47,656 nucleotides of DNA from Eubacteriales bacterium (lineage in GTDB: Bacteria; Bacillota; Clostridia; Oscillospirales; CAG-382). How positions within the stretch are numbered: position 1 is the stretch's first letter; each line of letters begins with the position of its first letter. A program made the translations under genes and the position numbers. The stretch spans positions 1 to 47,656 of the forward strand of contig JAZSLO010000043.1 in the NCBI GenBank assembly GCA_045535415.1. The letters are read 5' to 3'. The notes under the pieces are model-generated. The model was given only the letters and a program-made list of their open reading frames with translations, made no database searches and was not told the DNA's origin. Below are positions 39,082 through 40,383 of the stretch, piece after piece.

Positions 39082-39122
39082 ACGGTCGCTTTTTATTGTT
39101 TAAATAGCGACCGTGATTTTTT
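39082..39122. terminator. bidirectional intrinsic terminator
   Basis: Stem ACGGTCGCT/AGCGACCGT, A-rich 5' flank and GATTTTTT 3' flank. Lies between convergent genes. Confidence 0.7.
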
Positions 39123-39378
39123 ATGAATGAGTTTCAAGACATGTTCGTATTTTCTGAATTTGTTTCTCTACATCTTCTCCATACCACTCAGGATGCTCAA
39201 GTCTTGATTTCAGACAGGATTGCATCCATTTAATATCTGACATCATAGGGAAGTCAATTATTGGCACTTTATATGTAGTGGTATGTTCTTTATTAGGAAT
39301 TTGCAAATAATCATTAATTTTAAATTCTTTATCATCAATTACAACGCACTGCAGTGTTGATGTTTCTGTATCAAGCAT
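39121..39378 (-). CDS. 85-aa hypothetical protein, second gene of the attR-proximal pair
   Basis: ORF with RBS AAAGGA. No recognisable motif. Confidence 0.45.
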   Translation of the reverse strand: MLDTETSTLQCVVIDDKEFKINDYLQIPNKEHTTTYKVPIIDFPMMSDIKWMQSCLKSRLEHPEWYGEDVEKQIQKIRTCLETHS

Positions 39379-39422
39379 TTTTCAATCCTTTCAAAAAAAG
39401 TTTTATGCGGTCTGTATATGAG

Positions 39423-39692
39423 TCATTTTATATCGTTGTTTTTGTAATTGTCGTCAATGATGCCCTTTAAATCATTTAAAAGTTCTTCACCATTATTTCT
39501 TAACTGTGACAAAAGCAAAATAAAGGTTAAAGTGCTGCACATATTTTTTCCATTCTCAATATCTGAATATGAGCGCACATCCATTTCAAGTAAATTTGCC
39601 ATTTTCTTCTGGGTTAAGTTGTTGTCGTTTCTCAACTTTATAATGTAGCCACGAAGGAATTTTTTTAACTCCGATTGTAACTTGTTTCGCAT
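39423..39692 (-). CDS. XRE-family HTH protein immediately inside attR (candidate excision regulator/RDF)
   Basis: LTQKKMANLLEMDVRSYSDIENGK HTH. RBS GAGGAAAG. Starts 54 nt after the attR core, co-oriented with cotJABC. Confidence 0.7.
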   Translation of the reverse strand: MRNKLQSELKKFLRGYIIKLRNDNNLTQKKMANLLEMDVRSYSDIENGKNMCSTLTFILLLSQLRNNGEELLNDLKGIIDDNYKNNDIK

Positions 39693-39746
39693 TGTCTTTC
39701 CTCGTTTCTCTGGGGTTGATTATGCAAAATAGTCTAATGGAGTACA

Positions 39747-39758
39747 GACCGCCGAACT
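39747..39758. repeat. attR core (GACCGCCGAACT)
   Basis: Identical to 2028-2039. Confidence 0.8.
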
Positions 39759-39840
39759 GGCTCATTATAATCTGTGCTGCCACAGGGTCTGCCTTTTTAA
39801 TGTTTATGGGATACTGAAGTTTCTTTTCGTAATTCCACAT
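39747..39840 (-). pseudogene. cotJC: 5' segment of split cotJC (residues 1-31)
   Basis: MWNYEKKLQYPINIKKADPVAAQIIMSQFGG is the canonical CotJC N-terminus. Beyond the core the ORF runs into unrelated phage sequence. Confidence 0.85.
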
Positions 39841-39846
39841 ATCTTA

Positions 39847-40110
39847 TTAACCTCCTATATTCCACGGAAATTCATCGGTCGCCCATGTCCATCCATACTT
39901 TGAGGGTGTGGAATTTATCACAGTAAGAGGGCCGTAATTTCTCTCATATTCATTGACTGCTTTTGTATAGAATGCTTTTTGTCTGTCAAAATATTCTTTT
40001 GCTTTCTGATCTTCCGGATGCATATCAAGATATAAAAGTGCATCGTACATTGTAAATGAATATTTTTGAACTTCTTTCATAAGCATTTGTCTTTTAGTAT
40101 TATTTGTCAT
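39847..40110 (-). CDS. cotJB: spore coat protein CotJB
   Basis: LMKEVQKYSFTMYDALLYLDMHPEDQKAKEYF matches the CotJB signature (..L.LYLDTHP.D..A...). TAATG overlap with cotJA. Confidence 0.8.
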   Translation of the reverse strand: MTNNTKRQMLMKEVQKYSFTMYDALLYLDMHPEDQKAKEYFDRQKAFYTKAVNEYERNYGPLTVINSTPSKYGWTWATDEFPWNIGG

Positions 40111-40325
40111 TATTTTGTACTCCTGTCGCCAAGATAGGGAAGATTGAGAGTGGGGAATATAGTACCAACGCAAAGTGCTTCGTCGGCAGAGTAAATATTT
40201 TCCCATGTTTCTCTCTGAATCGGGAAATTTATGATGGCAAGATGCTGTTTTGTGTTGCCGTTCATATTATAAGAGTCTTGCGTGTTAGTACGCAAAAAAT
40301 CTCTGTTTTCAGGATTGAGGTACAT
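40110..40325 (-). CDS. cotJA: spore coat-associated protein CotJA
   Basis: ..W.NIYSADEALCVGTIFPTLNLPY matches the CotJA motif (AL..GT.FP.L..P). First gene of the operon. Confidence 0.7.
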   Translation of the reverse strand: MYLNPENRDFLRTNTQDSYNMNGNTKQHLAIINFPIQRETWENIYSADEALCVGTIFPTLNLPYLGDRSTK

Positions 40326-40375
40326 TTAAAATTCTCCTTTGTTTTATTTTTTGAGGGAAAATTTCCCCTCGTTTT

Positions 40376-40383
40376 ATTGTATG
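40376..40383 (-). promoter_or_regulatory. mother-cell sigma (E/K)-type -10-like box upstream of cotJA
   Basis: Minus strand reads CATACAAT, about 50 nt upstream of the cotJA ATG. No convincing -35 element found. Confidence 0.3.

Follow-up and report, generated by a model that had tools for sequence, protein, structure and literature searches.

The window analysed here, a 47,656-nt stretch of Eubacteriales bacterium DNA (contig JAZSLO010000043.1, assembly GCA_045535415.1), carries the sporulation gene cotJC split at codons 28-32 by a prophage of ~37.7 kb that encodes a large serine recombinase (LSR). Our subject is a pair of small minus-strand genes lying directly inside the attachment site attR of this prophage: an XRE-type helix-turn-helix (HTH) gene (39423-39692, 89 aa, pI 9.1) and orf85 (39121-39378, 85 aa), which encodes an acidic 10-kDa protein (pI 5.0) from a new family of small mobile-element proteins. 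Read along the minus strand, the order is a promoter-like site, cotJA, cotJB, the 5′ fragment of cotJC (cotJC′), the att core, a 54-nt spacer, HTH, a 44-nt spacer, orf85 and a terminator. Pfam identifies cotJA (40110-40325, minus strand, E 1.9e-11), cotJB (39847-40110, minus strand, E 8.3e-23), which is also called in contig L003 from a second lysogen, and cotJC′ (39748-39840, minus strand, codons 1-31), which matches positions 1-31 of Mn_catalase, the Mn_catalase/CotJC N-terminus. These calls and coordinates bear out the first-pass annotation, which had placed the pair directly inside attR and in the same orientation as cotJA-cotJB-cotJC′.

The prophage ends are marked by a common core, the 12-mer AGTTCGGCGGTC, which occurs at 39747-39758 (attR), at 2028-2039 (attL) and, identically, in an attP contig, L001. 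Past attL, cotJC continues as a middle fragment (1715-2027, minus strand, approximately codons 32-136), seen as a Pfam CotJC match at 2061-1699 on the minus strand. The two cotJC fragments rejoin in frame (...SQFGG/PDGE..., then LAAS, with the slash at the junction), such that precise excision restores the reading frame. The integrase gene, int, lies at this end of the element (2065-3519, minus strand, 484 aa) and encodes the LSR, with Pfam Resolvase, Recombinase and Zn_ribbon_recom domains and a match to the phrog_95 integrase family at 1e-110; its best match in phage records has 44% identity. The int stop codon is 25 nt from the attL core, and a cI-like repressor gene (HTH plus S24 peptidase by Pfam, 3532-4455, minus strand) lies 12 nt upstream of int, in agreement with the earlier description of a recombinase behind a repressor gene at the opposite end of the prophage. 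The arrangement is that of an intervening element: an insertion that interrupts a sporulation gene within its coding region, with a short core, a restorable frame and attL, attR and attP all seen, and with an LSR gene, recognised by its Pfam domains, at one end. This class of element, an LSR prophage within a sporulation gene, is already known, and cotJC is listed, in a passage of 10.1101/2021.11.22.469490 that cites Abe et al. 2013, as a sporulation gene in which phages or transposons often integrate.

All three junction forms were observed directly. In L001, a 1.5-kb assembly from SRR28204437, the C-terminal part of int (98% identical) is followed by the arm on the attL side, the core, the arm on the attR side, and then HTH, orf85 and the terminator. 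The contig has the attP form and displays the order int-attP-HTH-orf85-terminator that had been predicted for the circular phage. A second lysogen, from SRR31277394, supplies the attR side (L003) and the attL side (L060) in the same host gene neighbourhood, and L005 holds an attR junction in a different cotJC allele (MFQYEKILQY...). In total, attP is found in L001, attR in the window, L003 and L005, and attL in the window and L060. The int-attP-HTH-orf85 block has 95-97% DNA identity in three other sources; outside it the sequences part, past the terminator in L001 and in the phage body in L003/L060. Because the attP form is present in L001 and attR in three lysogens, we conclude that integration moves the pair from behind cI-int to behind cotJ. 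L001 shows that an excised or replicating form exists, and not when it arose. The interpretation first offered for this locus had two halves, and they fared differently: that attP splits a transcription unit is supported by L001 together with the window, L003 and L005, while the idea of a recombination directionality factor (RDF) that couples excision to sporulation is supported by nothing specific.

Both members of the pair are real genes. Each has a purine-rich ribosome-binding site (RBS) 7 nt from its ATG, and in four to five natural copies dN/dS is 0.05-0.2 for HTH and 0.2-0.5 for orf85, indicating purifying selection on both. The HTH protein matches Pfam HTH_3 at 31.1 bits (cut-off 23) over residues 17-65 and belongs to the XRE/Cro-C1 group; its ATG at 39692, 54 nt from the core and behind a good RBS, is exactly where the first-pass annotation had put it. 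The same annotation had called the 85-aa gene an orphan. The gene stands, on its dN/dS and RBS, and the orphan status does not, as an exhaustive HMMER search found 82 cluster representatives of its family.

The cotJC′ frame continues beyond the junction as an 84-aa fusion open reading frame (ORF) at 39586-39840 on the minus strand, which crosses the HTH start, overlaps the gene by 107 nt in another frame and stops at 39586. Because this frame runs across the HTH start, the gene is annotated as only 59 aa in lysogens (this contig and L003), which cuts the DNA-binding domain; the full 89-aa gene is called in the attP contig L001. The HTH N-terminus is also conserved in a paralog, and therefore the 89-aa form is correct.

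Three further observations concern the sequences within and around the pair. First, the spacer between HTH and orf85 contains a 10-mer, GCGGTCTGTA (39407-39416, plus strand), that is kept in all copies and is an inverted copy of a 10-mer spanning the att core and P′ arm at 39743-39752. It has three exact copies in the window, one inside cI (3979-3988, plus strand), one in the spacer and one at the att site (39743-39752, minus strand), and near-copies at 13022, 27366, 28002 and 29326; with one mismatch allowed there are 7 copies against 0.86 expected, a number that 0/100 shuffles reach. Second, the spacer and att copies form a perfect inverted repeat flanking the HTH gene. An RNA structure formed by this 10-nt repeat around HTH was considered and rejected, since the global fold of 39380-39860 is no better than that of shuffled sequences (z = -0.64). 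Third, a 592-nt sequence (L004, ENA ERZ28654211) carries the 3′ two-thirds of HTH and the conserved spacer with its RBS, with unrelated sequence upstream and, in place of orf85, what reads in translation as the start of a histidyl-tRNA synthetase; it is a remnant or recombinant, or else a chimeric metagenome assembly.

Transcription signals on the two sides of attP

A strong hairpin terminator with U-tracts on both strands (39071-39114) ends both the HTH-orf85 unit and a convergent gene for a 175-aa protein. For the minus strand, the hairpin ACGGTCGCT...AGCGACCGT (39114-39082) followed by its U-tract has a folding energy of -19 kcal/mol (z = -4.85, with 0/200 shuffles as good), and a consensus terminator scan missed it because its loop is 15 nt. 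The first strong terminator had been placed just past orf85, which is correct, and its position is refined here to 39082-39114. Between 40420 and 38950, a custom minus-strand scan gave no further strong terminator and two weak hairpins, one within cotJA and one from the P′ arm at ~39752-39722. The latter (39722-39752, minus strand) has a 6-bp stem (GGTCTG/TAGACT) followed by AUUUUG and may act as a leaky attenuator. The earlier statement that no terminator intervenes between cotJ and the pair thus holds for strong terminators and needs qualification for the weak hairpins in cotJA and the P′ arm.

Upstream of cotJA lies a promoter-like site of the mother-cell type (40375-40402, minus strand) with the arrangement AC-N17-CATACAATA, a full sigma-K consensus. 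The -10-like box reported earlier at 40376-40383 is present on the minus strand as CATACAAT, is of the sigma-E type and is kept in the second strain (L003); the full match is of the sigma-K type. The window has 12 copies of the -10 octamer, where 6.7 are expected, and matches to the sigma-K consensus are not rarer there than chance. Because such matches are statistically undistinctive, the site upstream of cotJA takes its weight from position only. In B. subtilis, cotJ is expressed in the mother cell, and from this precedent and the promoter-like site at 40402-40375 we infer mother-cell expression of cotJ here. Between the cotJ -10 box and the cotJA RBS there is also a G+C-rich inverted repeat, GAGGGGAAATTTTCCCTC (40352-40371), which scores as a terminator on the plus strand only and on the cotJ mRNA would be a 5′-leader hairpin; L003 retains it with one arm change and a one-base central insertion.

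On the int side, cI-int is preceded by a sigma-70 promoter, TTGACA-18-TG-TATAAT (4601-4630, minus strand), which matches the consensus at 12/12 positions and has an extended TG, and no minus-strand terminator was found between int and attL. Constitutive expression of int from the cI-int promoter would fit the known pattern of a constitutive LSR and a regulated RDF. The RNA of the attP form contains a dyad that can fold into a hairpin of -15.9 kcal/mol followed by UAUUUUG, a structure peculiar to the episomal form and missing from attR. This hairpin is weak (z = -1.6, 4-U tail); as a terminator it was rejected on that ground and is kept as speculation only.

No promoter of the pair's own is recognisable. 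There is no sigma-E or sigma-K consensus upstream of HTH or orf85 inside the element, no cI operator (CCTAC-N4-GTAGG, of which two copies lie at 4510-4566) near the pair, and no sigma-70-like promoter above chance upstream of HTH, where the region has 13 sites against 11.3 expected. This last count and the core-to-ATG interval, which is just 54 nt and is partly a recombinase binding site, speak against the view that the two are ordinary lysogenic-conversion genes (morons) with a weak or non-canonical promoter of their own and a position that has no regulatory meaning. The view draws on location, as the region between lysis genes and attP is the usual site for lysogenic-conversion genes in phages of Firmicutes and the pair has the lysis genes (M23 peptidase, 36342-36938) on one side, attP on the other and a defence-like module next to it. 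It also draws on a 9/12 sigma-70-like site inside the HTH 3′ end, upstream of orf85 (39454-39425), and on a CATAAT 33 nt upstream of the HTH ATG. On balance, we consider it unlikely that the genes are independently expressed morons.

All that we say about transcription and function of the pair is inferred. We favour, with a probability of roughly 40%, the reading that HTH and orf85 are a regulatory or accessory cassette whose expression reports whether the phage is episomal or integrated. The pair, which has no recognisable promoter, would be the far part of a transcription unit divided at attP. In the episome it stands behind the strongly promoted cI-int genes, with the weak attP-dyad hairpin alone between, and would be strongly transcribed whenever the phage is excised or newly injected. 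In the lysogen it stands behind cotJA-cotJB-cotJC′ and their mother-cell-like (sigma-K/sigma-E) promoter; it would be silent during growth, and cotJ transcription would run into it in the mother cell at sporulation. Translation of orf85 from this transcript should exceed that of HTH, because ribosomes on the cotJC′ frame would cross the HTH start. Under this favoured reading the cotJ read-through would be incidental, or a secondary input at most, with the directionality factor of the LSR encoded by some other gene.

The HTH protein, its neighbours and the orf85 family

The HTH protein is a paralog of a second phage gene product (5250-5513, minus strand), with 41% identity over 85 residues. That gene belongs to a second pair of an HTH and a small-protein gene (4928-5513, minus strand), in which it overlaps a 110-aa Zn-ribbon-like ORF (4928-5260); this second pair lies between cro and the early genes, convergent with cro, and has 98% DNA identity in L060. 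Direct comparison of orf85 with the Zn-ribbon-like ORF found no resemblance, and a relationship between the two was rejected. In database searches HTH matches only generic XRE proteins, with weak matches to RstR, HipB, Y4mF and MqsA-type proteins. Within the favoured cassette, the basic XRE protein would be a DNA-binding regulator related to its immunity-region paralog.

The repeated order of an HTH gene followed by a small-protein gene (39692-39121 and 5513-4928), along with the weak matches to HipB, Y4mF and MqsA-type antitoxin models, raises the possibility of a toxin-antitoxin or abortive-infection cassette, in which the XRE HTH protein would be the antitoxin and orf85 the toxin. The antitoxin models score 17-24 bits, however, with curated cut-offs of 62-80, which leaves HTH far below membership, and orf85 has no match in PADLOC, NCBIfam, Pfam or PHROGs. 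In addition, the partners downstream of the two HTH genes, orf85 and the Zn-ribbon-like ORF, are unrelated, and orf85 relatives usually have no adjacent XRE gene in the same orientation. We therefore regard a toxin-antitoxin role as very unlikely.

A three-gene accessory module (37820-39075, plus strand) adjoins the pair and is convergent with orf85. It encodes a 133-aa protein with a weak Gp49/HigB-like match, a 134-aa XRE HTH protein of the PDC-M64B/C-like type and the 175-aa protein mentioned above, which matches PADLOC PD-T4-9_C at E 9.6e-6. The module accompanies the HTH-orf85 pair in L003, where it is 99% conserved and the rest of the phage is different, and it looks like a defence system of the toxin-antitoxin-chaperone (TAC) type. 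The favoured cassette would occupy an accessory region between lysis and attP, beside a TAC/PD-T4-9-like defence module.

Word-indexed protein searches found only near-identical copies of HTH and orf85, and the orf85 family became visible only with the exhaustive HMMER search, in which its 82 cluster representatives appeared at E up to 0.001. Members share the motif (V/I)P.(V/I)DIPMMSDYKWQ..CL.SRLEHPE.Y..EDV..I..L..WL.EH. Family members had no match in Pfam, and PHROGs gave one marginal match among 40 members. An AlphaFold model of orf85 built from a 40-sequence alignment has a pLDDT of 83.7 and predicts a three-stranded sheet followed by two helices; an earlier model from 3 sequences was poor (pLDDT 68). 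Foldseek comparison of the models with the PDB returned nothing below E 0.3, and when a profile of 40 family members was run over all PDB sequences the best E was 0.22. Searches with tblastn of orf85 against phage records found nothing, IMG/VR searches with orf85, an HTH alignment and CotJB found nothing useful, and two JGI metagenome scans found nothing. By the alignment and the model, orf85 represents an undescribed family of small mobile-element proteins with a confidently predicted fold.

The gene neighbourhoods of orf85 relatives were surveyed at 13 loci in Clostridia genomes and viral contigs (L047-L059), with a 9-sequence subset of the family as query. In L048 the homolog follows cro-like and HTH_17 genes and precedes an AAA_25 replication protein gene, and the element itself encodes a cI-like repressor and a tyrosine integrase. 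The L050 and L052 homologs adjoin a DUF4368-type serine recombinase and have sigma-like, Rha-like and HTH_17 genes around them; in L058 the homolog is between primase and RusA; and the gene that follows it in L053 was read as a Y-family DNA polymerase from its N-terminal sequence only, with no Pfam check. Some relatives have no recombinase nearby at all. By these contexts the family, which is present in phages and integrative elements of Clostridia and often close to HTH_17 or sigma-like genes, is a common small gene of the early or regulatory regions of mobile elements, with no fixed link to this LSR lineage or to a place near att. In the cassette that we favour, orf85 would be the small acidic partner, drawn from a widespread mobile-element family.

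A proposed directionality factor at attR and the cotJC landing site

In a competing explanation the pair includes the LSR's directionality factor, orf85 being the likelier of the two, and read-through from cotJ in the mother cell triggers excision, which would help to rebuild cotJC while the forespore retains the prophage. As an RDF candidate orf85 is better than HTH because the cotJC′ frame does not disturb its translation and it lacks a DNA-binding signature. The layout is as this explanation predicts and is conserved in three lysogens; the pair has neither a strong intervening terminator nor a promoter of its own; and int is promoted constitutively along with cI, as in SPbeta and skinCd (PMC4191935, PMC5025042). 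The int-attP-HTH-orf85 block travels together across mosaic phages in the manner of 'SSR units' (PMC6957869), and the hairpin of the attP dyad, present in the episome only, could limit expression of the pair from cI-int while allowing expression from cotJ. Moreover, the attP contig shows that the element exists excised, so an RDF must be encoded somewhere, and the known sporulation-linked RDFs are small and without recognisable motifs, such as GirX (42 aa, PMC5595907) and CD1234 (72 aa, PMC5025042). Were an excision factor under sigma-E/K control, the sole candidate promoter would be the host site at 40402-40375, from which read-through is structurally possible.

Several results count against this explanation. 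No similarity of HTH or orf85 to known RDFs was found among solved proteins, in sequence or in fold, with the SprB sequence not compared directly; RDFs share no fold, and neither protein resembles any solved structure. The orf85 family occurs beside a tyrosine integrase or a DUF4368-type LSR and is not bound to this LSR lineage, and HTH has a paralog in the immunity region. The lytic operons are on the opposite strand, and the pair, which has no cI operator nearby, therefore would not respond to SOS induction, a response that is normally required of an RDF. With only the weak attP hairpin between int and the pair, an RDF encoded here would be made together with Int at infection, which would block lysogenisation. 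The position of the pair is weak evidence either way, because RDF genes show no dependable synteny with int (PMC12286644). RDFs bind their integrase at the DBD2/coiled-coil region (PMC12286644, PMC11722253), and the orf85 monomer model neither supports nor excludes such binding.

On co-inheritance with this int lineage the results point both ways: L001 and L003/L060 share the block, while no homolog of HTH or orf85 was found within 6 kb of 23 related LSRs in IMG/VR (30-55% identity). Four of these relatives (L009, L014, L017, L026) have the attL arrangement with cotJC seen here, and two (L013, L021) have the opposite orientation; in attP-form relatives (L006, L010, L012, L016) the genes across attP from int are convergent lysis genes or other genes. 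One related serine-integrase phage (47% identity) is available both in the attP form (L012) and integrated (L013). In L013 it occupies the same cotJC position (...SQYGG) in the opposite orientation, such that its integrase converges on cotJA-cotJB-cotJC′.

In IMG/VR contigs with a conserved cotJC start (L031-L046) the gene is truncated in 16/16, a count subject to selection bias, since a host gene is part of a viral contig only where it flanks a prophage. The cut falls after GG (codon ~31, as here) in eight and at TDIG(T)EE (codon ~65) in eight; in the codon-~65 contigs the fragment often faces a convergent serine recombinase gene, identified from its N-terminal motif. Among the eight same-site integrants, a hairpin terminator lies 40-80 nt past the junction in five (L036, L039, L041, L045, L046), and the nearest substantial phage genes are convergent in 8/8. 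Because of these terminators and convergent genes, and because relatives insert in either orientation, cotJ read-through is no general feature of cotJC phages, which weighs against the RDF explanation. To judge from their layout, excision control in the eight same-site phages does not use a co-oriented gene fed by cotJ read-through.

A second interruption of cotJC is present in the window itself. A second LSR gene (4-1560, plus strand, 518 aa, with DUF4368) converges on a junction at 1714/1715, and its element runs off the left end of the window. The cotJC sequence diverges there after GCAGCAGA (1715/1714), and the fragment ends ...EDLAAD/ATIS at a stop codon, with the slash at the junction; in L060 cotJC continues intact at that point (...DLAAEQKART...), and the SRR31277394 strain is without the second element. 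At least three distinct positions in cotJC (codons ~31, ~65 and ~136) have received insertions, and the gene appears to be a crowded target. With a second element in the gene, excision of this phage alone would not restore cotJC. In B. subtilis, cotJ is dispensable for viable spores, and selection for the reconstitution of cotJC would therefore be weak.

Taken together, a directionality factor in the pair that is switched on from cotJ seems unlikely to us. The more specific proposal of promoter capture by integration, in which a promoterless orf85 is the RDF, wired to the cotJ promoter so that host development triggers excision, with the attP hairpin damping episomal expression, is quite unlikely.

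The cassette that we favour meets objections of its own. 'Regulatory cassette' is a weakly specified claim, and an operator for HTH was not found. A conserved int-attP-HTH-orf85 block amid differing phage sequence is also the expected look of a shared recombination module, and an acidic beta-plus-helix protein of 10 kDa is RDF-like in size and type (CD1234 has 72 aa and a pI of 5.5; PMC5025042). Neither sequence nor fold nor synteny is conserved among LSR directionality factors (PMC12286644), and some are scavenged proteins with homologs in phages that use other integrases (PMC11795197). Because of such scavenging, the distribution of the orf85 family lowers the probability of an RDF role without removing it.

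Comparison with known systems

One close parallel is SPbeta SprA/SprB in B. subtilis spsM (PMC4191935, PMC5499854, PMC6957869), where, as here, an active LSR prophage occupies a mother-cell sporulation gene, the integrase is constitutive, and control of excision is expected from a small second protein. The two differ in layout, since sprB adjoins sprA on the same side of attP and the candidates here lie across attP from int. They also differ in expression: sprB has two promoters inside the phage, one stress-inducible and one sigma-E/K-dependent with a start site 20 nt before the gene (PMC4191935), whereas none is recognisable inside the present element. The comparison with SprB drawn at first pass is a loose one, as both sprB and CD1234 have their own promoters inside the element (PMC4191935, PMC5025042).

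In skinCd of C. difficile sigK (PMC5025042), the LSR CD1231 is expressed in all cells and is joined by CD1234, a small acidic protein without database similarity, which recalls orf85. CD1234 (72 aa, pI 5.5) keeps excision limited to the mother cell, and E. coli experiments showed it to be active (PMC5025042). It has a sigma-E/SpoIIID promoter, unlike orf85, which also comes from a broad mobile-element family. The gin element in B. cereus gerE likewise combines an LSR, GirC, with a tiny motif-less factor, GirX (PMC5595907). GirX was found by deletion mapping near the recombinase, and such factors are unrecognisable from sequence (PMC5595907). gin is not a phage, and expression of girX was measured during sporulation (PMC5595907).

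Sporulation-coupled excision through capture of a host promoter would be new, because SPbeta, skinCd and gin use promoters of their own (PMC4191935, PMC5025042, PMC5595907). The report of cotJC as a target (10.1101/2021.11.22.469490) covers the target gene and neither the att-proximal pair nor host promoter capture. If orf85 or the pair were a cotJ-driven RDF, this would be the first prophage to borrow the promoter of the gene it interrupts to time its excision, and the recombinase toolbox would gain a new integrase-RDF pair from gut Clostridia. Otherwise, the locus is a clean example of an attachment site that splits a transcription unit, documented three times over, by attL/attR, by attP and by a second lysogen.

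Attachment sites that divide transcription units have precedents. In the int-sib arrangement of lambda, the att site splits an RNA processing site that destabilises int mRNA, and in Tn916 circularisation joins a promoter to the transfer genes. By analogy, the integrated and episomal states of the present phage would express different genes as those elements do, with the difference that here two protein genes would be moved between a phage promoter and a host sporulation promoter.

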